Shown here: positions 36,276 through 62,079 of the stretch, one piece after another
How positions within the stretch are numbered: the first letter of the stretch is position 1
How the letters are laid out: each line of letters begins with the position of its first letter
Source of the DNA: Candidatus Marinacidobacterales bacterium
GTDB lineage: Bacteria > Acidobacteriota > Vicinamibacteria > Marinacidobacterales > SMYC01
Length of the DNA stretch: 64,000 nucleotides
Assembly: GCA_965237955.1 (NCBI GenBank)
Contig: OZ250169.1
Location: forward strand, 3,648,001 to 3,712,000
Reading direction: 5' to 3'
Notes under the pieces: model-generated
The model's database searches: none
What the model was told of the DNA's origin: nothing
Seen by the model: only the letters and a program-made list of their open reading frames with translations
Translations under genes and position numbers: made by a program

Positions 36276-36276
36276 C

Positions 36277-43701: not shown

Positions 43702-43752
43702 AAATAACATTTAGTCTACCTCCTCTGAATGTAAGACTCCTCGGCGAACACA

Positions 43753-43768
43753 TGCAAGTTGTATTCCA
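43753..43768 (-). promoter_or_regulatory. Candidate sigma-54 promoter of the TonB receptor
   Basis: TGGAATACAACTTGCA = GG-N10-GC spacing, 43 bp upstream of the ATG at 43710. Confidence 0.5.
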
Positions 43769-44157
43769 CTGCCAGCCACAGAAAAATAACACATAAGTCC
43801 ATAGAAATAAGCGTGTTAGGTGGCCGTACCCCTGCCCGATACCCTTTCCTGTTCAAAAATTTGGATGTCATCCGACCGACCGAACGGTCAGCCTGGAACC
43901 CTCGATCAGGTTAATATTCTATCTGAGAATAGCTTGGAGGGACTAGCGACTGACGAATCCGTCGTTCAGAACGATGGATCGGCGCCTTCGGGAGATTGGA
44001 TTTTGACCCAAATAGTCGGAAATCATGGTTAACCGGCGATTTTTTTGAACGCCACAAGCAAGGTGATGTGACCTCGCGGTGTGGTGTAGTATTCCGTGCG
44101 GCAACGCCCGGGGGACGCACGAAATTTACCAAAATTCAATACAGGGAGTCAGCCACG

Positions 44158-47100
44158 ATGCACGCGGGTCTTTCCCCCCGCCTTTTGGCGATTTTCCTCA
44201 TGACCATCCTTGCCGCGGCGTCAACGGCGCGGTCCCAGACGGACATCTCCGAGATTTTCGTTTTGAAAGCTCGGAGCATCGGCCCCTCCGGCATGAGCGG
44301 CCGCATCAGCGCCATTGATGCCGTGAACGCCGACCCCAACATCATCTACGTGGGCGCGGCCACCGGCGGTCTATGGAAGTCCACCTCCGGCGGCGTGACC
44401 TGGATGCCGCTCACCGACAGCATCCCCGCCTCCTCGGTGGGGGCGATCGCGATCTACCAGGCGGCGCCCGAGCTCGTCTGGATCGGCACCGGCGAGCGGA
44501 ATCGCCGCAACTCGGCCGGGGTCGGCACCGGGGTGTACAAGTCGCTGGACGGCGGCAAGAGCTGGCAACACGTGGGGCTCGAGTCGAGCGGCGCGATCGA
44601 CGCGATCGTGTTGCACCCGAGCAATCCGGAGCTTGCCTACGTCGGCGCCCTCGGCAACACCTGGAAGGAGAGCCCGCACCGGGGCGTGTACAAGACCACC
44701 GACGGCGGCAAGAGCTGGGACAAGGTGCTCTACGTGAACGAGACCACCGGTGCCGGCGACCTCGTCATGGATCCCGCGAGCCCCAATCACCTCATTGCCG
44801 CCATGTGGGATCACCGGCGCTGGCCGTGGTTTTTCCGCTCGGGTGGAGCGGGGAGCGGGCTCCACGTCACGTACGACGGCGGCGAGAGCTGGAAGCGGCT
44901 GAGTCCCAACGAAGGCCTCCCCGAGGGCGAGCTCGGCCGCATGGGGCTCGACTTCGCGCGGGGGAACCCCAAGGTGGTTTATGCCGTGGTCGAGGCCAAG
45001 CGCAGCGTAATGCTGCGCTCCGACGACCGTGGCGACACGTGGAAGGTCGTGAACGACTCGTTCACGGCCTTCCACGTTCACGGAAGCGATGTCGCTGAAA
45101 GGATCGCCGGGCGGCCGTTCTACTACGCGCAGGTGCGGGTCGACCCCACCAACGAGGACCGCGTGTATAACTTGCACGGGACGATTGATCGCTCAGAGGA
45201 CGGCGGCAAGCTCTTTCGGCCGCTCCTCCGCTTGGGGCAGGTGCACGGGGATCACCACGCGTTCTGGGTGAGCCCCGACGGCAAGTTCCTGATCGACGGC
45301 AACGACGGCGGGGTCTACCTCTCGCGCGATCGCGGCGCCTCGTGGCGCTTCATCGAGAACCTGCCGCTCGGCCAGTTCTACCACGTCAACGTGGACCTGG
45401 CGACGCCGTTCAACATCATGGGTGGGCTCCAGGACAACCACATGTGGCACGGGCCGAGCTCCGTGTGGCACAACGGCGGCATCCGCTTCTACGACTGGAA
45501 GAACATCGGATTCGGTGATGGCTTCGCCGTGCTCGCCGAGCCCAACGACCCGCGCTACGTCTACGCCACGAGGCAAGGCGGCCGCATCCTCCAGTCCGAT
45601 CTTCAAACCGGCGAGCGCAAGTCCATCGTGCCGGCCCATCCCGAGGCGATCGAGCTCCGGTTCAGCTGGAACGCGGGGATGGCGATCGACCCCCACGACG
45701 GGGCGCTCTACATCGGGAGCCAGTTCGTCCATCGCAGCACGGACATGGGAAGGACGTGGACCCTCATCAGCCCAGACCTCACCACCAACGACCCTGAGAA
45801 GCAGATGCAGGACGAGTCCGGCGGGCTCACGCTCGATGACACCGGGGCGGAGAATCACACCACCATCCTCACCATCGCGCCGTCGCCGGTCGAGCGCGGG
45901 GTGCTCTGGGTCGGCACCGACGACGGCAACGTGCAGCTGACGCGCGACGGCGGCCGCACCTGGCTCAACGTGGTGGAGCGGATCCGCGGCGTGCGCCCGA
46001 ACAGCTGGGTGCCGCACATCGAGGCCTCCAAGTTCGACGGCGGCACGGCGTTCGTGACCTTCGACGATCACCGTCGGGGCGACAACACGCCGTACGTCTT
46101 CAAGACCATGGATTACGGCACCACCTGGACCAGCCTCGTCACCGCGGACATCGAGCCATTCAACTTCGTTCATGTGATCGAGCAGGATCCCGTCGAGGCG
46201 AATTTGCTGTTCCTGGGCACCGAGCACGGAATGTACGTGTCGCTGAACGGAGGCCAGAAGTGGCATCTGTGGCGTCACGGACTCCCGCGGGCTCCCACGC
46301 GGGCCCTCGTCGTGCATCCGAGGGATCACGACCTGGTGATCGCGACACACGGCCGCTCGGTGTACATCCTGGACGATGTGGGGCCGCTGCGCGCGCTGGC
46401 GCGCGATCCCGCGATCGCAAACAGGTCGCTGCACTTGTTCGAGGTCCCGGTGGCCATTCGCTATCAGGTGGCGCCGCCGGATGGGATGCAGGTCACGGGG
46501 GACGGGATGTTCATTGGGGAGAATCGGCCCTACGGGGCGCTCGTGACCTACTCCATTCCCGCCGAGTCCGCGGTAAGAGACACCGCCAAGGTGACCTTCG
46601 AAGTCCTTGACGAGGCTGGTGCCACGATTCGCACGTTCGAGGCTCCGGCCAAGCCGGGCGTCAACCGGACCGCGTGGAACCTGCGACGCGACGCGTTCCG
46701 CCAGCCCCGTGTTCAGGAGGAAGACGCAGCCAGCCCGTCGCTCGTACGGGGGCCGGAGGTGCTGCCCGGCCGTTACACCGTCCGGGTGAAGTTCGAGGGC
46801 CAGGAAGCGAGCGCGGCGGTCGAGGTCCGGGAGGATCCGCGCTTCCAGGTCCCGATGGCGGTGCAGCGTGAGAGGCTGGACTTCATCATGACCGTGGGCC
46901 AGCGTCAGGAAGTCGCCGCCGAAGCGGTCAATCGTCTACGAGACGCGAAGCGCGCCGTCGACCGCGCGGTGGAGCAAGTCGAAGCCAACCGCGGGGCGAC
47001 CGACAGCACCGCCAAGGCGCTGGCATCGGCCGGCCACGACCTCAAGAAGGCGCTCACGAGCGTGGAGGAACTGTTCACTGGACACGGGGTTCAGGGGCAG

Positions 47101-47367
47101 GTGAGCTGGTCGGACGAGGTGCTGCCGCATCTCGGCAATCTCTTCGGTGACATCCACGGCACGCTCAGCTCCGCACGCGAGGCGCCGACCGAGGCCGAGC
47201 GGCTGTACCTGCGGGCGGCCGAAGAGGACCTGAAGCGAGCGCTCAAGCGGACGAACCGGGTCTTCGCGGAGGAGGTGGAGCGGTTCCGGGAGCGGGTGGC
47301 GGCGGGGCTCAACGCGGAGCTCTTCCCGGCGAAGAAGCCTCTGAGCGTCGATTGGAGGCAGCCGTGA
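44158..47367 (+). CDS. Secreted VPS10/sortilin-like BNR-repeat beta-propeller protein, paralog 1
   Basis: Signal peptide; RSIGP...GRI; many S/TxDGGxxW Asp-boxes; HGDHH; GGLQDN; ISPDLT; C-terminal Ig-like and helical regions. Confidence 0.92.
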   Translation: MHAGLSPRLLAIFLMTILAAASTARSQTDISEIFVLKARSIGPSGMSGRISAIDAVNADPNIIYVGAATGGLWKSTSGGVTWMPLTDSIPASSVGAIAIYQAAPELVWIGTGERNRRNSAGVGTGVYKSLDGGKSWQHVGLESSGAIDAIVLHPSNPELAYVGALGNTWKESPHRGVYKTTDGGKSWDKVLYVNETTGAGDLVMDPASPNHLIAAMWDHRRWPWFFRSGGAGSGLHVTYDGGESWKRLSPNEGLPEGELGRMGLDFARGNPKVVYAVVEAKRSVMLRSDDRGDTWKVVNDSFTAFHVHGSDVAERIAGRPFYYAQVRVDPTNEDRVYNLHGTIDRSEDGGKLFRPLLRLGQVHGDHHAFWVSPDGKFLIDGNDGGVYLSRDRGASWRFIENLPLGQFYHVNVDLATPFNIMGGLQDNHMWHGPSSVWHNGGIRFYDWKNIGFGDGFAVLAEPNDPRYVYATRQGGRILQSDLQTGERKSIVPAHPEAIELRFSWNAGMAIDPHDGALYIGSQFVHRSTDMGRTWTLISPDLTTNDPEKQMQDESGGLTLDDTGAENHTTILTIAPSPVERGVLWVGTDDGNVQLTRDGGRTWLNVVERIRGVRPNSWVPHIEASKFDGGTAFVTFDDHRRGDNTPYVFKTMDYGTTWTSLVTADIEPFNFVHVIEQDPVEANLLFLGTEHGMYVSLNGGQKWHLWRHGLPRAPTRALVVHPRDHDLVIATHGRSVYILDDVGPLRALARDPAIANRSLHLFEVPVAIRYQVAPPDGMQVTGDGMFIGENRPYGALVTYSIPAESAVRDTAKVTFEVLDEAGATIRTFEAPAKPGVNRTAWNLRRDAFRQPRVQEEDAASPSLVRGPEVLPGRYTVRVKFEGQEASAAVEVREDPRFQVPMAVQRERLDFIMTVGQRQEVAAEAVNRLRDAKRAVDRAVEQVEANRGATDSTAKALASAGHDLKKALTSVEELFTGHGVQGQVSWSDEVLPHLGNLFGDIHGTLSSAREAPTEAERLYLRAAEEDLKRALKRTNRVFAEEVERFRERVAAGLNAELFPAKKPLSVDWRQP

Positions 47368-47432
47368 TAGGTTTACCAGCACAGGGCCCAGGCCGTTCCT
47401 TTACGTTCCTCAAGTCCAGGGAGATAGACGCC

Positions 47433-50400
47433 ATGCACACGGATTTTTCCCCCCGCCTTTTTGCAATTTTCCTCATGACCATCCTTGCCGCGGGGTCCAC
47501 CGCGCGGTCCCAGACGGACATCACCGGGCTCGCCGGTTTGAAAGCGCGGAGCATCGGCCCCTCCGGCATGAGCGGCCGCATCAGCGCCATTGATGCTGTG
47601 AACGCCGACCCCAACATCATCTACGTCGGCGCGGCCACCGGCGGTCTATGGAAGTCCACCTCCGGCGGTTTGGCCTGGACGCCACTTACCGACAGCCTGC
47701 CTGCCACCTCGATCGGGGCCATTGCCATCAACCAGGCGGTACCAGATCTCGTCTGGATCGGGACTGGCGAAGGGGGTCGCCGCAACTCGGCGGGGGTTGG
47801 CACCGGGGTATACAAGTCTTTGGATGGAGGCAAGAGCTGGCAACACCTGGGACTCGAGTCGACCGGCGCGATCGCCTCGGTCTTGCTCCACCCGACCAAT
47901 CCGGAGATTGCCTATGTAGGTGCTCTCGGCAACACCTGGGCGGAGAGCCCAGAGCGGGGGGTGTACAAGACCACCGACGGGGGCAAGAGCTGGGACAAAG
48001 TGCTCTACGTGAGCGAGACCACCGGTGCCGGCGACCTCGTGATGGATCCCGCAAGCCCCAATCACCTCATTGCGGCCATGTGGGACCATCGTCGCTGGCC
48101 GTGGTTTTTCCGCTCGGGTGGACCGGGGAGCGGGCTCCACGTGACGTACGACGAGGGAGAGAGCTGGAAGCGGCTGAGTGCCAACGAAGGCCTCCCCGAG
48201 GGCGAGCTCGGTCGCATGGGGCTCGACTTCGCGAAGGGGAATCCCAAGGTGGTTTATGCGGTGGTCGAGGCCACACGCAGCGTGATGCTGCGTTCTGGCG
48301 ACCGCGGCGGTACGTGGGAAGTCGTGAATGACCAAGGTGCCGGGCGATCGATCGCCTGGCGGCCGTTCTACTTCGCGCAGGTGGCGGTGGACCCCACTAA
48401 TGAGAACCGCGTGTACAACATACTGAATTCGCTAGATGTCTCGGAGGATGGCGGCAAGAATTTTCGCAGCGTGCAGAATCGTGTGCACGGGGATCACCAC
48501 GCGCTCTGGGTGAGTCCCGATGGCAAGATCCTGATCGACGGCAACGACGGCGGGGTCGCCCTCTCGCGCGACCGCGGCGCCTCCTGGCGCGTCATCGAGA
48601 ACCTGCCGCTCGGCCAGTTCTACCACGTCAACGTGGACCTGGCGACGCCTTTCAACGTCATGGGGGGGCTCCAGGATAACGGCAGTTGGCACGGTCCGAG
48701 CTCCGTGTGGAACAGCGGCGGCATCCGCTTCCCCGACTGGAAGAACGTCGGATCCGGGGATGGCATCGCCGTGCTCGCCCATCCCACCAATCCGCGCTAC
48801 ATCTACGTCACGAGGGAGGACGGCCTCATCATCCGGTCCGACCTTCAAACCGGCGAGCGCAAGTCCATCGTGCCGGCCCATCCTGACGCGACCGAGCTCC
48901 GGTTCAGCTGGAACACGGGGATCGCGCTCGACCCCCACGACGGAGCGCTCTACATCGGGAGCCAGTTTGTCCACCGCAGCACGGACATGGGAACGACCTG
49001 GACCCTGATCAGCCCGGACCTCACCACCAACGACCCCGAGAAGCAGATGCAGGACCAATCCGGTGGGCTCACGCGGGACGACAGCTCGGCGGAGAACCAC
49101 ACCACGATCCTCAGCATCGCGCCATCGCCGGTCGAGCGCGGGGTGCTCTGGGTGGGCACCGACGACGGCAACGTGCAGCTGACGCGCGACGGCGGCGGCA
49201 CGTGGACCAACGTGGTGGAGCGGATCGGGGGCGTGCGCCCGAACAGCTGGGTGTCGCACATCGAGGCCTCGAAGTTCGAGGGCGGGACGGCCTTCGTGAC
49301 CTTCGACGATCACCGTCGGGGCGACAACACGCCCTACGTCTTCAAGACCATGGATTACGGCACCACATGGAGGAGCTTGGTCACCGCGGACATCGAGCCA
49401 TTCAACTTCGTTCATGCGATCGAGCAGGATCCCGTCGAGGCGAATCTGCTGTTCCTGGGTACCGAGTACGGCATGTACGTCTCGCTGGACGGAGGCCAGA
49501 AGTGGCATCTGTGGCGTCACGGTCTGCCGCGTGCGCCCACGCGGGCCCTCGTCGTGCATCCGAGGGATCACGACCTGGTGATCGCGACCCACGGGCGCTC
49601 GGTCTACGTCCTGGATGATGTAGGGCCGCTGCGCGCGCTGGCGCGCGATCCCGCGATCGCAAACAGGCCACTACACCTGTTCGAGCCTCCGGTGGCCATT
49701 CGCTATCATCCGTGGATCATGTGGATGAGTCGCGGTATGGGGGACGGGGCGTTCATCGGGGAGAATCGGCCGTATGGCGCGCTGCTGAGCTACTCCATTG
49801 GCAGCCCAAGCGATGGAGCTGTCACCGGTATCGGGAAGAAGGTGAGCATCGAAGTCGTCGACGAGGCCGGTGCCATCATTCGCACGTTCGAGGCCCCGGC
49901 GAAGCCGGGCGTTAACCGCACTGCGTGGGACCTGCGTCACGATGGGTTCCGCCGCCCCCGTGTTCAGGAGGGAAACGCAGCCGGCCGACCGCTCGTACGG
50001 GGGCCGCAGGTGCTGCCAGGCCGCTACACCCTTCGGATCGAGTTCGAGGGCCAGGACGCGAGTGCAGTCGTCGAGGTCCGGGACGATCCGCGCTTCGAGG
50101 CCCCGATTGCAGCGCAGCGTGAGAGGTTGGATTTCATCATGACGGTGGGCCAGCGTCAGGAAGTCGCCACGGAAGCGGTGGATCGTCTGCGAGACGCGAA
50201 GCGCGCCGTCGGCCGCGCGGTGGAGCAGGTCCAAGCCAACTGCGGGGCGACCGACAGCACCGCCAAGGAGCTGGCCCTGGCCGCCGAGGACGTCGAGAAG
50301 GCGCTCACGGACGTGGAGGTATTGTTTACTGGCACGCTGAACAGAGCTTATGCCGACGGCGGACCGCCCCGCGTCCAGGGGTTCCAAGCGTGGCCGGGCG

Positions 50401-50660
50401 AGGTGCTGCCGCAGCTCAACTTCCTCCTCGGTGAGTGTCCAATGTGCACCACCACGTTCACCCCGTCACGCGAAGCGCCGACCGAGGCCGATCAGCTACG
50501 CCTGCGGGCGGCGGATGAGGACCTGAAGCGAGCGCTCGAGCAGACGAACCGGGTTTTTGCTGAGAACGTGCAGCAGTTCCGGGAACGGGTGAAGGGACTC
50601 AACGCGGAGCTCTTCCTGGCGAAGGAGCCGCTGAGCGTCGATTGGAGACAGCCGCGATAG
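47433..50660 (+). CDS. VPS10/BNR beta-propeller protein, paralog 2
   Basis: Same architecture as paralog 1; RBS CAGGGAG. Confidence 0.92.
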   Translation: MHTDFSPRLFAIFLMTILAAGSTARSQTDITGLAGLKARSIGPSGMSGRISAIDAVNADPNIIYVGAATGGLWKSTSGGLAWTPLTDSLPATSIGAIAINQAVPDLVWIGTGEGGRRNSAGVGTGVYKSLDGGKSWQHLGLESTGAIASVLLHPTNPEIAYVGALGNTWAESPERGVYKTTDGGKSWDKVLYVSETTGAGDLVMDPASPNHLIAAMWDHRRWPWFFRSGGPGSGLHVTYDEGESWKRLSANEGLPEGELGRMGLDFAKGNPKVVYAVVEATRSVMLRSGDRGGTWEVVNDQGAGRSIAWRPFYFAQVAVDPTNENRVYNILNSLDVSEDGGKNFRSVQNRVHGDHHALWVSPDGKILIDGNDGGVALSRDRGASWRVIENLPLGQFYHVNVDLATPFNVMGGLQDNGSWHGPSSVWNSGGIRFPDWKNVGSGDGIAVLAHPTNPRYIYVTREDGLIIRSDLQTGERKSIVPAHPDATELRFSWNTGIALDPHDGALYIGSQFVHRSTDMGTTWTLISPDLTTNDPEKQMQDQSGGLTRDDSSAENHTTILSIAPSPVERGVLWVGTDDGNVQLTRDGGGTWTNVVERIGGVRPNSWVSHIEASKFEGGTAFVTFDDHRRGDNTPYVFKTMDYGTTWRSLVTADIEPFNFVHAIEQDPVEANLLFLGTEYGMYVSLDGGQKWHLWRHGLPRAPTRALVVHPRDHDLVIATHGRSVYVLDDVGPLRALARDPAIANRPLHLFEPPVAIRYHPWIMWMSRGMGDGAFIGENRPYGALLSYSIGSPSDGAVTGIGKKVSIEVVDEAGAIIRTFEAPAKPGVNRTAWDLRHDGFRRPRVQEGNAAGRPLVRGPQVLPGRYTLRIEFEGQDASAVVEVRDDPRFEAPIAAQRERLDFIMTVGQRQEVATEAVDRLRDAKRAVGRAVEQVQANCGATDSTAKELALAAEDVEKALTDVEVLFTGTLNRAYADGGPPRVQGFQAWPGEVLPQLNFLLGECPMCTTTFTPSREAPTEADQLRLRAADEDLKRALEQTNRVFAENVQQFRERVKGLNAELFLAKEPLSVDWRQPR

Positions 50661-50711
50661 AGTCTAAGCCGTTCCTTTATGTCCTCAAGTAAGTCCAGGG
50701 AGATAGACGCC

Positions 50712-53700
50712 ATGCATACGGATCTTTCCCCCCGCCTTTCGGCGGTTTTCCTCGTGACCATCCTTGCCGCGGCGTCAACGGCGCGGTCCCAGACGGACAT
50801 CACCGAGCTTGCCGGTTTGAAAGCTCGGAGCATCGGCCCCTCCGGCATGAGCGGCCGCATCAGCGCCATTGATGCCGTGAACGCCGACCCCAACATCATC
50901 TACGTGGGCGCGGCCACCGGGGGTCTATGGAAGTCCACGTCCGGCGGCGTGGCTTGGACGCCGCTCACCGACAGCCTGCCGGCGTCCTCGGTGGGGGCGG
51001 TCTCGATCTACCAGGCGGCGCCCGAGCTCGTTTGGATCGGCACCGGTGAGCACGGCCGCCGCAACTCGGCCGGGGTCGGCACCGGTGTGTACAAGTCGCT
51101 GGACGGCGGCAAGAGCTGGCAACATGTGGGTCTCGAGTCGACGGGGGCGATCAGTGAGATCGTGTTGCACCCGAGCAATCCGGACGTGGCCTACGTGGGC
51201 GCCCTGGGCAACACGTGGAAGGGGAGTGAGGACCGCGGCGTGTACAAGACCACCGACGGCGGCAACACGTGGGAGAAGGTGCTCTACGTGAACGAGACCA
51301 CCGGTGCTGGGGATCTCGTCATGGATCCCGCGAGTCCCAATCACCTCATGGCCGCCATGTGGGATCACCGTCGCTGGCCGTGGTTTTTCCGCTCGGGTGG
51401 AGCGGGAAGCGGGCTCCACGTCACCTACGACGGCGGCGAGAGCTGGAAGCGGCTGAGTCCGAGAGAAGGTCTCCCGGAGGGCGAGCTCGGTCGCATAGGG
51501 CTCGCCTTCGCGCCGGGGAATCCCGAGGTGGTTTATGCGGTGGTCGAGGCCAAACACAGCGTCATGATGCGCTCCGACGACCGCAGCGAGACGTGGAAGG
51601 TCGTAAGCGATAGAGGCGGCTTGCGATCGATCGCGAGACGCCCGTTCTACTTCGCGAGGTTGGTGGTGGACCCCGTCAACGAGAACCGTGTGTACAACTT
51701 GGTGGGGACGTTGAATCTCTCGGAGGATGGCGGCAAGAACTTTCGCAGGCTCCAAAACGGGCGGGTGCACGGGGATCACCATGCGCTCTGGGTGAGCCTC
51801 GACGGCAAGATCCTGATCGACGGCAATGACGGCGGGGTCACCCTTTCACATGACCGGGGTGCCTCGTGGCGCTTCATCGAGAACTTGCCGCTCGGCCAGT
51901 TCTACAAGATCAACGTGGACCTGGCGACGCCGTTCAACGTCATGGGCGGGCTCCAGGACAACGGCATGTGGCACGGACCGAGCTCGGTGTGGAACAACGT
52001 CGGCATCGGCTTCTCCGACTGGAAGGAGGTGGGATCCGGCGACGGCTTCGCGACGCTCGCCGTTCCCGGAAACCCGCGCTACGTTTACTCCACGAGGGAG
52101 GCCGGCTACATCGTCCGATCCGATCTTCAAACCGGTGAGCGCCACACGATCGGGCCCGCCCATCCCGAGGGGATCGATCTCCGCTACAACTGGAACCCGG
52201 GGATGGCCATCGATCCCCACGATGGATCGCTCTACTTCGGGAGCCAGTTCGTCCACCGCAGCACGGACATGGGAACGACGTGGACCCTCCTGAGCCCAGA
52301 CCTCACCACCAACGACCCCGAGAAGCAGATGGCGGACCAATCCGGCGGGCTCTCGCGCGACGACACCGAAGCGGAAAACCACACCGCGATCCTCACCATC
52401 GCGCCGTCGCCGGTCGAGCGTGGGGTGCTCTGGGTCGGCACCGACGACGGCAACGTGCAGCTGACGCGTGACGGCGGCGGCACCTGGGTCAACGTGGTGG
52501 AGCGGATCCGCGGCGTGCGCCCGAACAGCTGGGTGCCGCACATCGAGGCCTCCAAGTTCGAGGGTGGCACGGCCTTCGTGACCTTCGACGATCACCGTCG
52601 GGGCGACAACACGCCCTACGTCTTCAAGACCATGGATTACGGCACCACCTGGACCAGCCTGGTCACCGCGGACATCGAGCCATTCAACTTCGTTCATGTG
52701 ATCGAGCAGGATCCCGTCGAATTTGCTGTTTCTCGGCACCGAATACGGCATGTACGTCTCGCTGAACGGAGGTCAGAAGTGGCATCTGTGGCGTCACGGA
52801 CTCCCGCGTGCTCCGACCCGGGCCCTCGTCGTGCATCCTCGGGATCACGACCTGGTGATCGCGACCCACGGGCGCTCGGTGTACATCCTGGACGACGTGG
52901 GGCCGCTGCGCGCGCTGGCGCGCGATCCGGCGATCTCAAACCGGCCGCTACACTTGTTCGAGGTTCCGGTGACCACTCGCCATCTTCTGTGGCGCCGGTA
53001 TATGACCCGTGGCAACGGGGATGGAATGTTCATTGGGGAGAATCGGCCGTACGGGGCCGCTCGTGACCTACTCCATTTCTACCGAGTCCGTAGCAAGCGA
53101 CACCGCGAAGGTGACCATCGAAGTCCTCGACGAGGCGGGTGCCACGATCCGCACGTTCGAGGCTCCGGCCAAGCCGGGCATCAACCGGACCGCGTGGGAC
53201 TTGCGTCGGGACTCGATCCGCCTGCCTCCTGCGGAAGTGACATCGGCCCCGTCGCTCCACCCGGGGCCGCAAGTGCTGCCCGGCCGCTACACCGTTCGCA
53301 TCGAGCTCACGGGCGAGGAAGTGAGCGCGGCGGTCGAGGTCCGCGAGGATCCGAGATTCGACGTCCCGATCGCGGCCCAGCGCGAGAAGCTGGACTTCCT
53401 CATCACCGTGGGCCAGCGCGTGGAAGTCGCCACGGAAGCAGTCAATCGTCTGCGATACGCGAAACGTGCCGTCGACCGCGTGGTCGAACAAGTCCAGGCC
53501 AACCGCGGGGCGAGCGACGGTACCGCCAAGGAGCTGGCATCGGCCGGTGGCGACCTCAAGGAGGCGCTCACCGACGTGGAGGTGCTGTTCACCGGAGACA
53601 CGATGAACTTTTATCTCGACGGAGGGCCCCAGCGGATTCAGGGGATGGAGAGCTGGCCCGACGACGTGCTACCGCAGCTTTTGGACCTCACCGGCGACGG

Positions 53701-53911
53701 CGCCCTCGGCACGTTCACGCCGTCACGCGACGCGCCCACCGAGGCGGAGCGGCTGCATCTGCAGGCAGCCGAAGAGGATCTAGAGCAAGCAATCGAGCAA
53801 ACGAACCTGGTTTTGGCGGAGGAGGTGGGGCGCTTCCGGGACCAGGTGGCGGCGGCGCTCGGCGTGGAGTTTTTCCCGGCCAAGGAGCCGCTGAGCGTCG
53901 ATTGGAGGTAG
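50712..53911 (+). pseudogene. VPS10/BNR beta-propeller protein, paralog 3, two frameshifts
   Basis: 5-nt deletion at ~52720 (GTCGA|ATTTG vs GTCGAGGCGAATTTG) and +1 C at ~53057 relative to siblings. Confidence 0.88.
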
Positions 53912-53989
53912 CCGCGATTGGCCTGACTAGCACAGGGTTCAGGCCGTTCTTATACCATCCTTAATATGAGTCCAGGGAGACGGACACCG

Positions 53990-56900
53990 ATGCACACTGG
54001 TCCTTCCACTCGCCTTTCCTCGGTTTTCCTCGTGACCCTCCTTGCTGCGGCGTCCACGGCGCGGTCCCAGACGGACATCATCGGGCTTGCCGGTTTGAAA
54101 GCGCGGAGCGTCGGCCCCTCCGGCATGGGCGGCCGCATCAGTGCGATCGATGCCGTGAACGCCGACCCCAACATCATCTACGTGGGCGCGGCCACCGGGG
54201 GTCTATGGAAGTCCACCTCCGGCGGCGTGGCTTGGACGCCGCTCACCGATAGCCTGCCGGCGTCCTCGGTGGGGGCGGTCGCCATCTACCAGGCGGCGCC
54301 CGAGCTCCTCTGGATCGGTACTGGCGAAGGGGGTCGCCGCAACTCGGCTGGGGTCGGCACCGGGGTGTACAAGTCGTTGGACGGCGGCAAGAGCTGGCAA
54401 CACGTGGGGCTTGAGTCGACCGGGGCGATCCACGAGATCGTGTTGCACCCGAGCAATCCGGAGCTCGCCTACGTCGCCGCGCTCGGCAATACCTGGAAGG
54501 AGAGCCCGGATCGGGGCGTGTACAAGACCACCGACGGTGGCAAGAGCTGGGAGCAGGTGCTCTACGTGAACGAGACCACGGGTGCCGCGGACCTGGTCAT
54601 GGATCCGGCGAGCCCGAATCACCTCATTGCGGCCATGTGGGACCACCGGCGGTGGCCGTGGTTTTTCCGCTCGGGTGGACCTGGGAGCGGGCTCCACGTC
54701 ACGTACGACGGGGGAGAGAGCTGGAAGCAGCTCAGTGCTAACGAAGGCCTTCCCGAGGGCGAGCTCGGCCGCATGGGGCTCGACTTCGCGCGGGGAAACC
54801 CCAAGGTGGTTTATGCCGTGGTCGAAGCGAAACGCAGCGTGATGCTGCGCTCCGACGACCGCGGTAACACGTGGGAGGTCGTGAACGACCAGGCCGGCAT
54901 GCGCTCGATCGCGAGACGCCCGTTTTACTTCTCGAGGGTGCGGGTGGACCCCACCAACGAGAACCGCGTGTACAACTTGGTGGGGTCGATGGATCTCTCG
55001 GAGGACGGCGGCAAGAACTTTCGCGTGCTCATGAAGCGGACGCACGGGGATCACCACGCGCTGTGGGTGAGCCCCGACGGCAAAATCCTGATCGACGGCA
55101 ACGACGGCGGGGTCTATCTCTCGCCGGATCGCGGCGCCACCTGGCGCTTCATCGAGAACCTGCCGCTCGCTCAGTTCTACAAGATCAGCGTGGACCTGGC
55201 GACGCCGTTCAACATCATGGGCGGGCTCCAGGACAACGACATGTGGCACGGGCCGAGCTCCGTGTGGCACGACGGCGGCATCCGCTTCTCCGACTGGAAG
55301 GAGGTGGGATACGGCGACGGTTTCACGGTGCTCGCCGAGCCCACCAATCCGCGCTACATCTACGCCACGAGAGAGGCCGGCTTCATCGTCCGGTCCGATC
55401 TTCGAACCGGCGAGCGCAAGTCCATCAAGCCGGCCCATCCCGAGGCGACCAAGCTCCGGTTCAACTGGAACCCTGGGATGGAGATCGACCCCCACGACGG
55501 GGCGCTCTACCTCGGGAGCCAGTTCGTCCATCGCAGCACGGACATGGGAAGGACCTGGACGATCATCAGCCCAGACCTCACCACCAACGACCCCGAGAAG
55601 CAGATGGCGGACCAATCCGGCGGGCTCTCGCGCGACGACACCGAGGCGGAGAACCACACCACCATCCTCACCATCGCGCCGTCGCCGGTCGGGCGCGGGG
55701 TGCTCTGGGTGGGCACCGACGACGGCAACGTGCAGCTGACGCGCGACGGCGGCGGCACCTGGGTCAACGTGGTGGAGCGAATCCGGGGCCTGCGCCCGAA
55801 CAGCTGGGTGTCGCACATCGAGGCCTCCAAGTTCGAGAGTGGGACGGCCTTCGTGACCTTCGACGATCACCGTCGGGGCGACAACACGCCCTGCGTCTTC
55901 AAGACCATGGATTACGGCAACACGTGGACGAGCCTGGTCACCGCGGACATCGAGCCATTCAACTTCGTTCACGTGATCGAGCAGGATCCCGTCGAGGCGA
56001 ATCTGCTGTTCCTGGGCACCGAGTATGGAATGTACGTCTCGCTGAACGGAGGCCAGAAGTGGCATCTGTGGCGTCACGGACTCCCGCGTGCTCCGACGCG
56101 GGCCCTCGTCGTGCATCCGAGGGATCACGACCTGGTGATCGCGACCCACGGCCGCTCGGCGTACATTCTGGACGACGTAAGGCCGCTGCGCGCGCTGGCG
56201 CGCGATCCCGCGCTCGCAAACAGGCCACTACACGTGTTCGACCCTCCGGCGGCCATTCGCTACCATTCGTGGCGTAGGTGGATGGGTCGCGGAAGTGGAG
56301 ACGCGATGTTCATTGGGGAGAATCGGCCCTACGGGGCGCTCGTGACCTACTCCATCGGCAGCCACAGCGATAGAGCTGTAAACGGTAGCGGGAAGGCGGA
56401 AGGGGGAAGCACCCCACCGGCTTCGGGCGACACGTCAGCCCAGAGCGCCGCGTCCGCCGAAAAAGACACCGCGAAGGTGACCTTCGAAGTCCTCGACGAG
56501 GCCGGTGCAATCATTCGCACGTTCGAGGCCCCAGCGAAGCCGGGCGTCAACCGGACCGCGTGGGACCTCCGTCACGACGGGTTCCGCCGCCCCCTTGTTC
56601 AGGAGGAAGGCGCAGCCGGCCCGTCGTTCGTACAGGGGCCGGAGGTGTTGCCCGGCCGTTACACCGTCCGGGTGAAGTTCGAGGGCCAGGAAGCGAGCGC
56701 GGCGGTCGAGGTCCTGGAGGATCCGCGCTTCCAGGTCCCGATGGCGGTGCAGCGTGAGAGGCTGGAGTTCGTCATGACCGTGGGCCAGCGTTTGGAAGTC
56801 GCCGCCGAAGCGGTGGATCGTCTACGAGACGCGAGGCGCGACGTCGACCGCGTGGTGGAGCAGGTCGAAGCCAACCGCGGGGCGAGCGACGGCACCGCGA

Positions 56901-57289
56901 AGGCGCTGGCATCGGCCGGCCACGACCTCAAGAACGCGCTCACGGACGTGGAGGTACTGTTCACCGGAGACACGATGAACTTTTTGGTCGACAGAGGACC
57001 GGAGCGAATTCAGGGGATGGAGAGCTGGCCGGACGAGGTGCTGTCGCAGCTCAGCTATCTCACCGGCGACCTCTACAGCGGCACATTCACCCCGCCACGC
57101 GAGGCGCCGACCGAGGCCGAGCGGCTGCACCTGCGGGCGGTCGAAGAGGACCTGAAGCAGGCGCTCGAGCGTACCAACCGGATCTTCGCGGAGGAGGAGG
57201 CGCGGTTCCGGGAGCGCGTGGCGGCGGGGCTTAACGCGGAGCTCTTCCCGGCGAAGGAGCCTCTGAGTGTCGATTGGAGGCATCCGTGA
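53990..57289 (+). CDS. VPS10/BNR beta-propeller protein, paralog 4
   Basis: Same architecture as paralog 1. Confidence 0.92.
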   Translation: MHTGPSTRLSSVFLVTLLAAASTARSQTDIIGLAGLKARSVGPSGMGGRISAIDAVNADPNIIYVGAATGGLWKSTSGGVAWTPLTDSLPASSVGAVAIYQAAPELLWIGTGEGGRRNSAGVGTGVYKSLDGGKSWQHVGLESTGAIHEIVLHPSNPELAYVAALGNTWKESPDRGVYKTTDGGKSWEQVLYVNETTGAADLVMDPASPNHLIAAMWDHRRWPWFFRSGGPGSGLHVTYDGGESWKQLSANEGLPEGELGRMGLDFARGNPKVVYAVVEAKRSVMLRSDDRGNTWEVVNDQAGMRSIARRPFYFSRVRVDPTNENRVYNLVGSMDLSEDGGKNFRVLMKRTHGDHHALWVSPDGKILIDGNDGGVYLSPDRGATWRFIENLPLAQFYKISVDLATPFNIMGGLQDNDMWHGPSSVWHDGGIRFSDWKEVGYGDGFTVLAEPTNPRYIYATREAGFIVRSDLRTGERKSIKPAHPEATKLRFNWNPGMEIDPHDGALYLGSQFVHRSTDMGRTWTIISPDLTTNDPEKQMADQSGGLSRDDTEAENHTTILTIAPSPVGRGVLWVGTDDGNVQLTRDGGGTWVNVVERIRGLRPNSWVSHIEASKFESGTAFVTFDDHRRGDNTPCVFKTMDYGNTWTSLVTADIEPFNFVHVIEQDPVEANLLFLGTEYGMYVSLNGGQKWHLWRHGLPRAPTRALVVHPRDHDLVIATHGRSAYILDDVRPLRALARDPALANRPLHVFDPPAAIRYHSWRRWMGRGSGDAMFIGENRPYGALVTYSIGSHSDRAVNGSGKAEGGSTPPASGDTSAQSAASAEKDTAKVTFEVLDEAGAIIRTFEAPAKPGVNRTAWDLRHDGFRRPLVQEEGAAGPSFVQGPEVLPGRYTVRVKFEGQEASAAVEVLEDPRFQVPMAVQRERLEFVMTVGQRLEVAAEAVDRLRDARRDVDRVVEQVEANRGASDGTAKALASAGHDLKNALTDVEVLFTGDTMNFLVDRGPERIQGMESWPDEVLSQLSYLTGDLYSGTFTPPREAPTEAERLHLRAVEEDLKQALERTNRIFAEEEARFRERVAAGLNAELFPAKEPLSVDWRHP

Positions 57290-57354
57290 TAGTGTTGCCG
57301 ACGCAAAGCTGGTGCTGTTCCAATATGTTCCTTAAATTCAGGGAGTCAGCCACG

Positions 57355-60300
57355 ATGCACACGGATCTTTTCCCTCGCCTTTCGGCGGTTTTCCTCGTGA
57401 CCATTCTTGCCGCGGCGTCAACGGCGCGGTCCCAGACGGACATCACCGAGCTTGCCGGTTTGAAAGCTCGGAGCATCGGCCCCTCCGGCATGAGCGGCCG
57501 CATCAGCGCCATTGATGCCGTGAACGCCGACCCCAACATCATCTACGCGGGCGCGGCCACCGGCGGTCTATGGAAGTCCACCTCCGGCGGCGTGACCTGG
57601 ACGCCACTCACCGACAGCCTGCCCGCGTCCTCGGTGGGGGCGATCGCGATCTACCAGGCGGCGCCCGAGCTCGTCTGGATCGGCACCGGCGAGCGCAACC
57701 GCCGCAACTCGGCCGGGGTCGGCACCGGGGTGTACAAGTCGCTGGACGGCGGTAAGAGCTGGCAACACGTGGGGCTCGAGTCGAGCGGCGCGATCGACGC
57801 GATCGTGTTGCACCCGAGCAATCCGGAGCTCGCCTACGTCGGCGCCCTCGGCAACACCTGGAAGGAGAGCCCGCACCGGGGCGTGTACAAGACCACCGAC
57901 GGCGGCAAGAGCTGGGACAAGGTGCTCTACGTGAACGAGACCACCGGTGCCGGCGACCTCGTCATGGATCCCGCGAGCCCCAATCACCTCATTGCCGCCA
58001 TGTGGGATCACCGGCGCTGGCCGTGGTTTTTCCGCTCGGGTGGAGCGGGGAGCGGGCTCCACGTCACGTACGACGGCGGCGAGAGCTGGAAGCGGCTGAG
58101 TCCCAACGAAGGCCTCCCCGAGGGCGAGCTCGGCCGCATGGGGCTCGACTTCGCGCGGGGGAACCCCCAGGTGGTTTATGCCGTGGTCGAGGCCAAGCGC
58201 AGCGTGTTGCTGCGCTCCGACGACCGCGGCGACACGTGGAAGGTCGTGAATGACGAGGGCGGCTATCCGTCGCCGATCGCCTGGCGGCCGTTCTACTACG
58301 CGCAGGTGCGGGTGGACCCCACCAACGAGAACCGCGTGTACAACGTGCAGGGGACGATAGGTCTCTCGGAGGACGGCGGCAAGAACTTTCGCAGGTTCCA
58401 GACCCGGGTGCACGGGGATCACCACGCGCTCTGGGTGAGCCCCGACGGCAAGTTCCTGATCGACGGCAATGACGGCGGGGTCGCCCTCTCGCGTGACCGC
58501 GGCGCCTCCTGGCGCTTCATCGAGAACCTGCCGCTGGCCCAGTTCTACCACATCAACGTGGACCTAGCGACGCCGTTCAACGTCATGGGCGGGCTCCAGG
58601 ACAACGGCATGTGGCACGGGCCGAGCTCCGTGTGGCACAACGGCGGCATCCCGTTCTCCGCCTGGAGGAACATCGGAGCCGGTGATGGCATGGCCGTGCT
58701 CGCCGAGCCCAACGACCCGCGCTACGTCTACACCACGAGGGAGGCCGGCTACGTCGTCCGGTCCGATCTTCAAACCGGCGAGCGCAGGTCCATCGTGCCG
58801 GCCCATCCCGAGGGGATCGAGCTCCGGTTCAGCTGGAACCCGGGGATGGCGATCGACCCCCACGACCAAGCGCTCTACATCGGGAGCCAGTTCGTCCATC
58901 GCAGCACGGACACGGGAAGGACGTGGACCCTCATCAGCCCAGACCTCACCACCAACGACCCTGAGAAGCAGATGCAGCACACGTCCGGCGGGCTCACGCG
59001 CGACGACACCGAAGCGGAGAATCACACCACCATCCTCACCATCGCGCCGTCGCCGGTCGAGCGCGGGGTGCTCTGGGTCGGCACCGACGACGGCAACGTG
59101 CAGCTGACGCGCGACGGCGGCGGCACCTGGCTCAACGTGGTGGAGCGGATCCGCGGCGTGCGCCCGAACAGCTGGGTGCCGCACATCGAGGCCTCCAAGT
59201 TCGACGGCGGCACGGCGTTCGTGACCTTCGACGATCACCGTCGGGGCGACAACACGCCGTACGTCTTCAAGACCATGGATTACGGCACCACCTGGACCAG
59301 CCTCGTCACCGCGGACATCGAGCCATTCAACTTCGTTCATGTGATCGAGCAGGATCCCGTCGAGGCGAATTTGCTGTTCCTGGGCACCGAGTACGGAATG
59401 TACGTCTCGCTGAACGGAGGCCAGAAGTGGCATCTGTGGCGTCACGGACTCCCGCGGGCTCCCACGCGGGCCCTCGTCGTGCATCCGAGGGATCACGACC
59501 TGGTGATCGCGACACACGGCCGCTCGGTGTACATCCTGGACGACGTGGGGCCGCTGCGCGCGCTCGCGCGCGATGCCGCGATCGCAAACAGGCCACTACA
59601 CTTGTTCGACCCTCCGGTGGCCATTCGCTATCATCCGTGGCTCAGGGGGAGGAATGACGGCAACGGGATCTTCACTGGGGAGAATCGGCCCTACGGGGCG
59701 CTCCTGACCTACTCCATCGGCAGCCACAGCGATAGAGCTGTAACCGGTAGCGGGAAGGCGGAAGGCGGAAGCACCCCACCGGCTTCGGGCGACACGTCAG
59801 CCCAGAGCGCCGCGTCCGCGGAAAAAGACCCCGCGAAGGTGACCTTCGAAGTCCTTGACGAGGCCGGTGCCATCATTCGCACGTTCGAGGCCCCAGCGAA
59901 GCCGGGCGTTAACCGCACCGCGTGGGACCTCCGTCACGACGGGTTCCGCCGCCCCCGTATTCAGGAGGGAAACGCTGCGGTCCGGTCGTTCGCACGGGGG
60001 CCGGAGGTGCTGCCAGGCCGTTACACCGTTCGGATCGAGTTCGAGGGCCAGGAGGCGAGCGCGGCACTCGAGGTCCGGGAGGATCCGCGCTTCCAGGTCC
60101 CGATGGCAGCGCAGCGCGAGAGGCTGGATTTCATCATGACCGTGGGCCAGCGCCAGGAAGTCGCCGCGGAAGCGGTGGATCGTCTACGAGGCGCGAGGCG
60201 CGCCGTCAGCCGCGCGGTGGAGCAGGTCCAAGCCAACCGCGGGGCGACTGACAGCACCGCCCAGGAGCTGGCATCGGCCGGCGACGACCTCGAGGAGGCG

Positions 60301-60657
60301 CTCTTCGGGGTGGAGGAACTGTTCACGGGAGACGCGGGGAACTTTTATACCCTCGGAGCGCAGCGAATTCAGGGGTTCCGCGCGTGGCCGGGCGAGGTGC
60401 TGCCGCAGCTCGACTACGTCATCGGCGGCTGTGGAATGTGCAGAACCACGTTCACCCCGTCACGCGAGGCGCCGACCGAGGCCGAGCGGCTACACCTGCG
60501 GGCGGCCGAAGAGGACCTGAAGCGAGCGCTCGAGCGGACGAACCGGATCTTCGCCGAGGACGTGGCGCGGTTCCGGAAGCGGGTAGCGGACGGGCTCAAC
60601 GTGGAGCTCTTCCCGGCGAAGGAGCCGCTGAGCGTCGATTGGAGGCAGCCGCGATAG
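57355..60657 (+). CDS. VPS10/BNR beta-propeller protein, paralog 5
   Basis: Same architecture as paralog 1. Confidence 0.92.
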   Translation: MHTDLFPRLSAVFLVTILAAASTARSQTDITELAGLKARSIGPSGMSGRISAIDAVNADPNIIYAGAATGGLWKSTSGGVTWTPLTDSLPASSVGAIAIYQAAPELVWIGTGERNRRNSAGVGTGVYKSLDGGKSWQHVGLESSGAIDAIVLHPSNPELAYVGALGNTWKESPHRGVYKTTDGGKSWDKVLYVNETTGAGDLVMDPASPNHLIAAMWDHRRWPWFFRSGGAGSGLHVTYDGGESWKRLSPNEGLPEGELGRMGLDFARGNPQVVYAVVEAKRSVLLRSDDRGDTWKVVNDEGGYPSPIAWRPFYYAQVRVDPTNENRVYNVQGTIGLSEDGGKNFRRFQTRVHGDHHALWVSPDGKFLIDGNDGGVALSRDRGASWRFIENLPLAQFYHINVDLATPFNVMGGLQDNGMWHGPSSVWHNGGIPFSAWRNIGAGDGMAVLAEPNDPRYVYTTREAGYVVRSDLQTGERRSIVPAHPEGIELRFSWNPGMAIDPHDQALYIGSQFVHRSTDTGRTWTLISPDLTTNDPEKQMQHTSGGLTRDDTEAENHTTILTIAPSPVERGVLWVGTDDGNVQLTRDGGGTWLNVVERIRGVRPNSWVPHIEASKFDGGTAFVTFDDHRRGDNTPYVFKTMDYGTTWTSLVTADIEPFNFVHVIEQDPVEANLLFLGTEYGMYVSLNGGQKWHLWRHGLPRAPTRALVVHPRDHDLVIATHGRSVYILDDVGPLRALARDAAIANRPLHLFDPPVAIRYHPWLRGRNDGNGIFTGENRPYGALLTYSIGSHSDRAVTGSGKAEGGSTPPASGDTSAQSAASAEKDPAKVTFEVLDEAGAIIRTFEAPAKPGVNRTAWDLRHDGFRRPRIQEGNAAVRSFARGPEVLPGRYTVRIEFEGQEASAALEVREDPRFQVPMAAQRERLDFIMTVGQRQEVAAEAVDRLRGARRAVSRAVEQVQANRGATDSTAQELASAGDDLEEALFGVEELFTGDAGNFYTLGAQRIQGFRAWPGEVLPQLDYVIGGCGMCRTTFTPSREAPTEAERLHLRAAEEDLKRALERTNRIFAEDVARFRKRVADGLNVELFPAKEPLSVDWRQPR

Positions 60658-60825
60658 ATTTGCCGACGCAAGCTGATCTTCCGATCGATTGGCGGAGCGG
60701 TTCGGGAAGGCTCCGGCGGAGAGCGGGCCGACTCGATTCCCGTGATCGAGTTGCTCTGACGTGCGCCGACAGTATCAGTGTGAACTTGAAGGATAGCGTT
60801 TGACGGAGGTAGTCAGGAGGTCATC

Positions 60826-62079
60826 GTGAGATTCACGCAAGCTCTTTGTCGAGGGGCGACAACGGTAATTTGCGTTGTGTCCATGGGATGCGAACAGCCG
60901 GCAATGGAGGGGGCGACGGCTGCCGGTGAGGAGGAGACGAGCATACCGGAGTTTAGAGTCGATCCCTTCTGGCCGAAGCCGCTGCCCAACGACTGGCTCA
61001 TCGGAGAGATAGCCGGGTTAGCGGTCGACTCGCGCGATCACGTCTGGGTCTTTCAGCGGCCGGGGAGCTTGACCGCGGACGAGCTAGGCGCGGCGCAAGA
61101 TCCGCCCATCTCGGTTTGTTGCAAGCCGGCTCCATGGATCCTGGAGTTCGATGAGGAAGGCAATCTCATTCAGTCATGGGGTGGTCCCGGGTCCGGCTAC
61201 GACTGGCCTAGCGTCGAGCACGGACTCTTCGTCGACCATAAGGGTAACGTCTGGATAGGCGGGGAAAGCCGGGAGGACCATCAAGTGCTGAAGTTCAGCT
61301 CCGAGGGCACTTTCCTCCTCCAGATCGGACAGGCTGGAAAGACCGGCGGGAACAACCATAAGGAATTTCTTGGACATCCCACCGACATAGAAGTCGATCC
61401 CAAGACGAACGAAGTCTTCGTTTCAGACGGCTACCTGAACAGGCGCGTGATCGTATTCGACGCGGAAACGGGGGAGTACAAGCGTCACTGGGGAGCTTAC
61501 GGCAACGAGCCGGAGGATTTCGCGCCCGGCATCTACTACGCCGGGGGGAGGTACAAGAAGACGGGACCTGACGGAGAGCCGGTCGATGCCGGTCTCACGC
61601 CGCCCATAGCGCCGGGGAGACGTACCCCAGGCTCTGAAACCACCTACAATCCGGACGACCCCCCCTCACAGCAGTTCAACATTGTGCATGGGGTTCGCGT
61701 CACGAACGACGGGCTCGTTTACGTGGCGGATCGCACCAACAACCGTATTCAGGTCTTCCAAAGAGACGGCACCTTCGTGAAGGAAGTCGTCATCGCCAAC
61801 AAGACGATGGGAGAAGGAACGGCCTGGGATGTGGATGTTTCATCGGATGAGAATCAGACCTTTCTATATGTCGCCGATGGAACCAACCAGCGGGTCTGGA
61901 TCCTGCGACGAGAAGACCTGGAGATTCTCGGTTCCTTCGGCCGCCGCGGCCATGGCGCGGGCGAATTCCACTGGGTGCACCGTTTGGCGGTGGACTCCCA
62001 CGGTAACATCTACACCGGCGAGGTGAGCCGAGGGCGGCGCCTCCAGAAGTTCGTTTTAGAGAAGAAAGAGGCGACCTAA
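60826..62079 (+). CDS. NHL-repeat lipoprotein, peptidyl-alpha-hydroxyglycine alpha-amidating lyase (PAL)-like
   Basis: Lipobox-like SMGC; VDPFWPKPLP, HGLFVD, VSDGYLNRRV, VYVADRTNNRIQVF, HRLAVDS.GNIYTGEV. Confidence 0.85.
   Translation: MRFTQALCRGATTVICVVSMGCEQPAMEGATAAGEEETSIPEFRVDPFWPKPLPNDWLIGEIAGLAVDSRDHVWVFQRPGSLTADELGAAQDPPISVCCKPAPWILEFDEEGNLIQSWGGPGSGYDWPSVEHGLFVDHKGNVWIGGESREDHQVLKFSSEGTFLLQIGQAGKTGGNNHKEFLGHPTDIEVDPKTNEVFVSDGYLNRRVIVFDAETGEYKRHWGAYGNEPEDFAPGIYYAGGRYKKTGPDGEPVDAGLTPPIAPGRRTPGSETTYNPDDPPSQQFNIVHGVRVTNDGLVYVADRTNNRIQVFQRDGTFVKEVVIANKTMGEGTAWDVDVSSDENQTFLYVADGTNQRVWILRREDLEILGSFGRRGHGAGEFHWVHRLAVDSHGNIYTGEVSRGRRLQKFVLEKKEAT

Follow-up and report, generated by a model that had tools for sequence, protein, structure and literature searches.

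The window analyzed here, 64,000 nucleotides (nt) of Candidatus Marinacidobacterales bacterium (contig OZ250169.1), covers 3.648-3.712 Mb of a single-contig 8.13-Mb genome, hereafter G000, and carries an array of five tandem same-strand genes at 44158-60657. These genes, c1 to c5, lie head to tail, comprise about 1070-1100 codons each, are separated by spacers of 51-78 nt, and share 83-92% nucleotide identity in pairwise comparisons. We propose, with a probability of roughly 78%, that ordinary homologous recombination, both gene conversion and unequal crossing-over, exchanges sequence among them starting from a near-identical framework, while the variable segments that distinguish five diverged types of a predicted secreted protein, resembling glycoside hydrolase family 74 (GH74) in its predicted fold, are mostly kept. 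We read the case as a tandem cluster of paralogs shaped by ordinary conversion and by birth-and-death, not as programmed combinatorial variation: the head-to-tail paralogs show significant position-dependent incongruence, their number and order vary between the same flanks, and tracts are homogenized within the genome. An earlier note on this DNA had described the genes as VPS10 paralogs whose variable modules are recombined combinatorially by gene conversion or unequal crossing-over, an interpretation that is partly supported.

The nearest neighbor of each gene shifts along its length among c1-c5, as that note had described, and the shifts exceed chance. A pairwise homoplasy index (PHI)-type permutation test of the five array copies gave P=0.0002 (220 informative sites). 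When restricted to the 58 synonymous sites, the test gave P=0.087 for a window of 100 nt and P=0.0008 for one of 300 nt, and a synonymous-only test of 20 copies gave P=0.001. Moreover, a GENECONV-type test, with no mismatches allowed and 10,000 permutations over 803 polymorphic sites, detected five identical tracts with a global P<0.05 (Table 1). Both tests are our own implementations, not the published programs.

All 12 of the quoted non-insertion motifs that we searched sit in exactly the named pairs among the array copies. GERNRRN, SSGAIDAIV, and KESPHRG are found in c1 and c5; QMADQSGGLSRDD, TGDTMNF, and IQGMESWPD in c3 and c4; QGFxAWPGEV, CxMC, and TTFTP[SP]RE in c2 and c5; and VRVKFEGQEASAAVEV and ALASAGHDLK in c1 and c4, the shorter QMADQSGG occurring also in c3 and c4. 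The near-identity claimed for the N-terminal ~800 bp of c1 and c5 amounts to 766/780 over alignment columns 111-890. Identity is 599/677 over columns 891-1600 and 657/670 over columns 1601-2270, which reveals a second shared block that had gone unlisted. In addition, c4 and c5 have in common a linker insertion, the start of which is also present in c2, that makes them 87 nt (~29 amino acids net) longer than c1 and c3; the alignment places this insertion in the type-5 copy of G009 as well. It is next to impossible that strong purifying selection and convergent substitutions produced these patterns with no recombination at all. The tracts do lie mostly in the most conserved protein segments, but the permutation test uses polymorphic sites only, and an 87-nt insertion cannot arise twice by convergence, which, together with the synonymous signal of the 300-nt window and the 20 copies, refutes this explanation.

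Further copies define the types. Among 40 related genomes, full close copies were found in two, G009 and G013, which are congeners of each other and belong to the family of G000 and to another genus, and a partial copy was found in a third, G012. In G000 itself, which holds ~44 homologous loci, 11 of them above 65% identity, there are four more close copies, dA (186 kb), dB (906 kb, truncated), dC (2.08 Mb), and dD (4.12 Mb), and four fragments. The set thus comprises 22 copies from 4 genomes, 17 of them beyond c1-c5. Trees and tract counts used the 20 full-length copies, leaving out dB and the G012 copy, while protein alignment and the ratio of nonsynonymous to synonymous divergence (dN/dS) left out the frameshifted copies c3, dA, dB, dC, dD, G013 a1, and G012. 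The 22 copies fall into five types. Type 1 consists of c1, dA, dB, dC, and the first array genes of G009 and G013; type 2 of c2 and single copies in G009, G013, and G012; type 3 of c3, dD, and four copies in G009/G013; type 4 of c4 and the third array genes of G009/G013; and type 5 of c5 and one copy each in G009/G013.

The gene order is 1-2-3-4-5 in G000 and 1-3-4 in both G009 and G013, between the same receptor and NHL-repeat flanks; by genome, the arrays hold five genes, three plus one nearby, and three. The type-5 gene of G009 lies ~5 kb beyond its array. Types 2 and 5, located outside the arrays in G009/G013, retain array-type spacers or tails, and the spacers ahead of types 2, 4, and 5 recur in other genomes. 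The dispersed copies of G000 are themselves recombinant in appearance: dC joins the c1 body to the c2 tail and the c2/c3 spacer, and dD has an N-terminus of its own, after which 5 substitutions and the two indels of c3 are its sole differences from c3 over 2.5 kb. Compared with c1, dB and dC lack the same 2 nt between two homopolymer runs, through either a shared mutation or a systematic error. In G013, the dispersed loci L024, L025, and L026 (types 5, 3, and 3) have one common upstream sequence, at least two of them share the downstream sequence, and their gene ends cluster with one another on both the 5′ and the 3′ side, as in an exchange of types inside a common frame.

Where in the genes does recombination fall? 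In the per-segment trees, which the earlier note had proposed alongside a GENECONV-type test, a tree with all types monophyletic was rejected by the approximately unbiased (AU) test in 6 of 12 hand-chosen segments (columns 1-250, 251-470, 471-850, 1881-2250, 2500-2650, and 3201-3359), all of which are framework, ends, or linker. Monophyly was retained in columns 851-1200, 1201-1650, 1651-1880, 2251-2420, 2651-2960, and 2961-3200. With 13 fixed windows of 240 columns, it was rejected in 7 (AU<0.05; P<0.002 in 4) and kept in 6. The types persist in most variable segments and fail in the framework, the ends, and the linker, the last being both variable and recombinant. Within types, synonymous divergence (dS) is low in the variable windows (0.04-0.12) and higher, at up to 0.26, in most framework windows. 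Identical tracts of at least 120 nt between different types were found in 8 of 52 same-genome pairs, as compared to 3 of 104 cross-genome pairs (Fisher P=0.007, with pairs that are not independent).

The array genes c1 and c4 illustrate these exchanges. At 100 of the 132 sites where c1 differs from its same-type counterparts, it matches an array neighbor, versus ~9-10% expected for fresh mutations; for c4, the corresponding count is 71 of 103 (~10% expected). Painting of c1 assigns columns 53-887 and 1595-2273 to c5, with the type-1 variable segments kept. In c4, only 4 sites differ from both type-4 counterparts before column 1880, and 99 after it; painting assigns columns 2365-2594, including the insertion, to c5, and columns 2672-2830 to c1. 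The regions chiefly affected by recent exchange are the conserved framework, as in c1/c5; the signal-peptide end; and the C-terminal linker, where c4 took up its insertion from type 5. KESPHRG occurs only in c1, c5, dB, and dC, the VRVKFEGQEASAAVEV motif only in c1, c4, and dC, and VRVKF.../ALASAGHDLK likewise only in c1, c4, and dC; the confinement of KESPHRG and VRVKF.../ALASAGHDLK to G000 indicates that this exchange was recent.

The modules that c3 has in common with c4, and c2 with c5, had been taken as shuffled units, and this part of the earlier proposal is mostly not supported. Across the three genomes, all 9 full copies of types 3 and 4 have TGDTMNF and IQGMESWPD, and all 6 of types 2 and 5 have QGFxAWPGEV and CxMC (our TTFTP motif missed one type-2 copy). 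They are therefore fixed type features that predate the split between these genomes' copies. The QMADQSGGLSRDD motif also occurs in G009, in copies of types 3 and 4, and in a single such copy of G013, and QMADQSGG is widespread, being found in types 1 and 5 elsewhere. Rather than being shuffled combinatorially, the segments for the most part travel as five stable types over the 22 copies; the one clear transfer of a loop is the type-5 insertion in c4. Old combinatorial shuffling may still have made the five types themselves (3+4, 2+5, and 1+3 in another segment), in which case the earlier note would be right in deep time, a possibility that we consider real without favoring it. Of the between-type topologies, (2,5)(3,4)1 ranks first for three of the six variable segments, but columns 2251-2420 favor 1+3 and reject it (AU 0.008), and no topology passes all six at 0.05. 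However, (1,4)(2,5)3 passes five and fails only at AU 0.042, the short segments have low power, 90 tests were made, and the shared modules may reflect plain shared descent. The between-type incongruence is weak, and old shuffling would add to recombination from the framework without excluding it.

The earlier note had also suggested that c3, as a frameshifted copy, could act as a silent donor, a role that the data do not support. No tract derives from c3; its 5′ end is c5-like, unlike that of most type-3 counterparts, and c3 is therefore a recipient, here from a c5-like gene. Its frame is interrupted twice in this assembly, by the loss of 5 nt after 52717 and by an additional nt at 53057. We compared contigs from 7 of 24 listed public runs, none of which spans the array, and the contigs covering these sites lack both breaks. 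The five missing bases are present at full depth in runs from three studies (X1, 42/42; X3, 5/5; X5, 17.5/17.5), run X2 having no cover at this site, and the extra base is absent in X1 (46.7/46.7), X2 (4.6/4.6), X5 (46.1/55.3), and X3 (4.4/13.5). These contigs could derive from dD-like copies, but the X1 depth of 47-62 over c3, about twice the 20-25 over c2, fits both c3 and the dD-like copy being intact there. The frame breaks are likely assembly errors or very recent. Run X1 contains junctions private to dA and the truncated fragments of G000 and thus comes from the same or a very near strain; it may be the source sample, and then is not independent.

A programmed system of antigenic type, in which the leader-proximal c1 would be an expression site overwritten from an archive of downstream donors, is decidedly unlikely. 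It would account for c1 being the most mosaic gene of the array (30% own-type painting, versus 70-88% for c2-c5) and for a single leader preceding different types: whole or in part, the leader stands ahead of dispersed copies and fragments of G000, namely type 1 (c1, dB, and dC) and the c3/c5-like starts of two truncated fragments, and ahead of the type-2 gene in G012. The ~83-92% identity among the copies is also near the ~90% stated for vls cassettes in the accessible part of one account (PMC11499132). Unlike silent cassettes, however, each of the five genes begins with a start codon and an N-terminus that resembles a signal peptide, and each has a full frame (c3 as assembled excepted). Besides, c1 retains its type-1 variable segments, and it was the framework that was replaced; c4, c3, and the array neighbors in G013 are recipients as well, so that transfer is not one-way; the same-type donors of type 1 are more distant (89-91%) than those of any other type, and this in itself lowers the painting score of c1; and the scanned open reading frames include no site-specific recombinase.

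Two further candidates were rejected. Silent-cassette variation of the vls or pilS type does not fit four of five genes being full open reading frames with starts, the receipt of tracts by c1, c3, and c4 alike, and the monophyly of the types in most variable segments, the linker insertion excepted. As for the target of a diversity-generating retroelement, the differences involve every base, without a bias toward A in two small fragments, and the nearest reverse transcriptase is ~100 kb away.

Could the mosaics arise from assembly, by consensus bleeding between repeats? The c1/c5 tracts are 100% identical, the assembly has small indels against the run contigs (at 44061, 44081, and 50681, and both breaks in c3), copies of its insertion sequences (IS) show ~1 private indel per 11-24 kb (9 in 100 kb; 1 in 23.5 kb), and no listed record spans the array. 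We nevertheless regard this explanation as highly improbable, and for c4 it is largely refuted. The run contigs match the c4 mosaic region with 0 differences (X4, 56326-56584; X1, 56343-56457, 56428-56539, and 56565-56678), and those of X1 also match the c3/c4 junction (53832-54178) and the c5/NHL junction (60507-60984) with no differences. None of the run contigs bridges an identical tract of 300 nt, so that support for the c1/c5 tracts comes from dB and dC, which carry the same tract elsewhere in the genome, and from a 143-nt tract that is identical between c1 and the type-5 gene of G009. Furthermore, the independent assemblies of G009 and G013 have mosaics of their own, and most tracts carry private substitutions. 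One of the four RNA runs (X17) yielded 3 contigs, two of them long pieces with 2-4 differences, and is not informative on expression.

The types also cross genera. The rpoB genes of G000 and G009/G013 are 82% identical, with fourfold-site divergences of 0.53/0.52, while same-type copies across the genera are 88-96% identical, with fourfold-site divergences of 0.055-0.23 in 7 pairs (0.006-0.18 over codons 285-620). In a sample of G009 (20 x 15 kb = 300 kb), 44% had no match in G000, 46% matched below 80%, and 6% matched at 88% or more. Same-type identity so far above the rpoB and genome backgrounds argues for cross-genus transfer, and horizontal transfer is likely the plain reading of this sharing. 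The DNA around the arrays (G009 contig C2, 3882000-3925999; G013 contig C2, 730000-771999) is nearly all 85-99% like G000, in gene-sized scrambled pieces and IS, in contrast to genomes that are otherwise 67-79% alike. Judged from such comparisons, the genera appear to have a flexible, heavily shuffled gene pool in common. In a broader and rather unlikely version, acidobacterial genera would maintain a receptor repertoire at the level of the community, trading the five specificity types of a GH74-like binding protein as gene-sized units, re-stacked behind one leader by crossover at the conserved ends, with the first slot preferentially rewritten and most expressed; selection would then preserve the segments that confer specificity, and the framework would be overwritten again and again.

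Next, we consider the protein. The VPS10 label corresponds to a Pfam match (Sortilin-Vps10, PF15902) over ~110 of 446 positions, accompanied by BNR repeats; the Vps10 profile matches are weak (E 1e-4 to 7e-6). An AlphaFold2 model of c5, from a 51-sequence alignment, comprises 14 blades of four strands each, along with a beta-sandwich and a helical bundle (predicted local distance difference test score 87.6; predicted template modeling score 0.88), the insertion of c4/c5 being a low-confidence coil. Foldseek and VIA ranked GH74 xyloglucanases first (6p2k, 6p2m, 2cn2, and 5fkq), with VIA Z scores of 28-29, ~600 aligned residues, root-mean-square deviations of 5-6 Å, and 16-18% identity; single seven-bladed propellers tie in Z, but over ~300 residues. 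According to the accessible part of one structural report, Vps10 domains are ten-bladed, while GH74 enzymes have tandem seven-bladed propellers (PMC2716378). The model, a prediction and not a solved structure, contains two tandem seven-bladed Asp-box propellers, and the predicted fold is thus GH74-like; a Vps10 domain, as in sortilin and SorCS2, with which the array proteins have Asp-box repeats and the short PF15902 match in common, was rejected on the blade count.

The likeness to GH74 xyloglucanases is structural and model-based. In a profile alignment, the array proteins have a conserved Ala opposite the Asp of the GH74 N-terminal ARADIGG motif (Asp in 2cn2, Ala in 2cn3), and they possess the extra beta-sandwich and helical bundle. 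This Asp of 2cn2 is presumably the first GH74 catalytic Asp. A candidate for the second catalytic Asp, the invariant Asp390 (QDN), is located in the blade-8 loop, and a phmmer search with the blade 8-10 region found no GH74; His327 and Asp329 are likewise invariant (mature c5 numbering). On visual inspection, the N-termini look like signal peptides. Divergence between types amounts to a dN of 0.115 and a dS of 0.32, and 35 of 40 highly variable propeller positions are in blades 3, 5, 6, 8, and 9. A CxxC motif (CPMC, CGMC) in a loop of the C-terminal bundle, at about c5 residues 1026-1029, is confined to types 2 and 5 and could be a disulfide or metal site. Atlas clusters matching at 0.97-0.98 ("WD40/YVTN/BNR-like repeat" or "Sortilin N-terminal domain", ~1050 amino acids) come from Bacteroidota, Gemmatimonadota, and Acidobacteriota, and the homologous loci of G000 belong to the same bacterial family. 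Most of them are singletons of 30-50% identity, whereas the array subfamily is a recent recombining expansion.

We propose the following course of events. Exchange of the RecA type would start in the conserved blades, the signal-peptide end, and the gene tail, and would halt at the divergent segments, through either a heterology block or selection for each type's ligand specificity. Unequal crossing-over probably alters the array size (five versus three genes), and the types probably move between genera by horizontal transfer within the IS-rich flexible gene pool. The five genes are likely co-transcribed, as the short spacers with purine-rich start signals suggest. A consensus scan detected no promoter in the leader (43702-44157); the promoter and terminator scans, with 1 and 6 sites versus 2.1 and 9.8 expected, are uninformative. 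In the last and weakest step, the products could well bind or process different extracellular ligands beside the TonB-dependent receptor, a functional prediction that we advance tentatively.

Several points weigh against recombination from a framework with stable types. The 12 segments were chosen after the data had been seen, and in the 13 fixed windows the link between variability and monophyly is a tendency only (Spearman -0.55, P=0.052). Recombination is strong in window 2401-2640, in the variable linker, and marginal in two other windows, 1441-1680 and 2641-2880. As G009 and G013 are congeners, polarity depends on a single outside lineage. The types crossed genera recently, so that their stability extends over a short time only, a few percent of synonymous change. 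With propeller faces assigned from strand order, the top-face enrichment of variable residues is not significant (19/229 vs 8/184, P=0.11), and in a windowed test for positive selection no stretch of 60 codons has dN/dS of 1 or more, the between-type maximum being 0.73.

The closest described case is the lpl cluster (nuSa-alpha) of S. aureus. In the accessible part of its description, tandem paralogs on a mobile island have distinct conserved groups of variable regions, conserved internal sequence recombines and rearranges the cluster, and the spacer moves with the flanking gene ends (PMC2568036). That part also reports that recombination at a single central conserved region pairs the variable 5′ and 3′ halves anew, regards conversion as minor, and finds no exchange between loci or between species (PMC2568036). 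The present array differs in its several conserved blocks, prominent conversion tracts, mostly linked variable segments, involvement of dispersed copies, and types that cross genera. The Borrelia vls/VlsE system likewise has contiguous ~90% identical sequences and segmental conversion, and, as far as that account extends, one expression site, silent cassettes, and one-way transfer that varies the variable regions (PMC11499132). In contrast, the array consists of complete genes with many-way transfer, mainly of the framework. Our literature search found nothing on an array of this family, and most subscription papers were outside its coverage, so that the search does not establish that such an array is unpublished. 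The recombination itself is textbook; the added interest lies in the stable types common to different genera, and in the record that these genes have lately been exchanged between genera of uncultured acidobacteria. The label is corrected from VPS10 to a GH74-like double propeller, as modeled. The case moreover offers a handle on an abundant, uncharacterized bacterial protein family: five matched types with a common framework and a short list of differing positions indicate where specificity can be tested.

Table 1. Array genes, exchanged tracts, and flanking features in window coordinates
Feature	Position	Strand	Remarks
Copy 1 (c1), type 1, 1069 amino acids	44158-47367	+	First array gene; type-1 variable segments, framework largely c5-like
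Copy 2 (c2), type 2, 1075 amino acids	47433-50660	+	96% / 93% identity to single copies in G009 / G013
Copy 3 (c3), type 3	50712-53911	+	Two frame breaks in assembly; c5-like 5′ end
Copy 4 (c4), type 4, 1099 amino acids	53990-57289	+	Type 4 until ~55830, then patchwork of type-1/type-5 tracts
Copy 5 (c5), type 5, 1100 amino acids	57355-60657	+	Predicted 14 blades, beta-sandwich, helical bundle
c1 tract, 336 nt, = c5 57832-58167	44635-44970	+	Holds KESPHRG; global P=0.0001
c1 tract, 269 nt, = c5 59123-59391	45956-46224	+	P=0.025; same framework region identical between G013 neighbors a1/a2
c3 tract, 142 nt, = c5 57406-57547	50763-50904	+	Signal-peptide end; P=0.003
c3 tract, 77 nt, = c4 55568-55644	52293-52369	+	QMADQSGGLSRDD; P=0.016
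c4 tract, 66 nt, = c1 46763-46828	56649-56714	+	VRVKFEGQEASAAVEV; P=0.049
Type-5-derived c4 tract with linker insertion	56313-56533	+	Missing from type-4 counterparts
Leader region ahead of copy 1	43702-44157	+	Recurs elsewhere (see text)
Divergent TonB-dependent receptor gene	36366-38979	-	5′ part severed by IS21; homologue upstream of array in G009, G013
IS21 cutting the receptor gene	38980-41922		Beyond it ISL3, 42318-43702
NHL-repeat propeller gene after array	60826-62079	+	Present likewise in G009, G013

The G+C content of the array is 65-67%, versus ~60% for the genome. The receptor gene, the leader, and the start of c1 (window 36200-44285) are duplicated as a block at other places in G000 (905-911 kb, 117-122 kb, 357-363 kb, and 8.028 Mb), and the receptor, although interrupted in the window, has a 999-amino-acid frame at 908-911 kb. 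Downstream of the array, three distant family members lie on the opposite strand (window 62614-64000, minus strand; G000 3.711-3.724 Mb), with ~34% identity to c5; copies of the first of them, 92-95% identical, at 3.72 and 3.84 Mb suggest a second recombining subfamily. The IS load is very high, both at 437-36170 of the window and genome-wide. The IS21 element has at least 34 near-identical full copies and the ISL3 element at least 17, and a repeat of ~100-170 nt at the ends of rve-type elements occurs hundreds of times, concentrated in certain chromosomal regions. Genes for type I restriction-modification (S and M) and one with a GmrSD domain are situated amid IS elements at 24834-28177 and 32242-33768.

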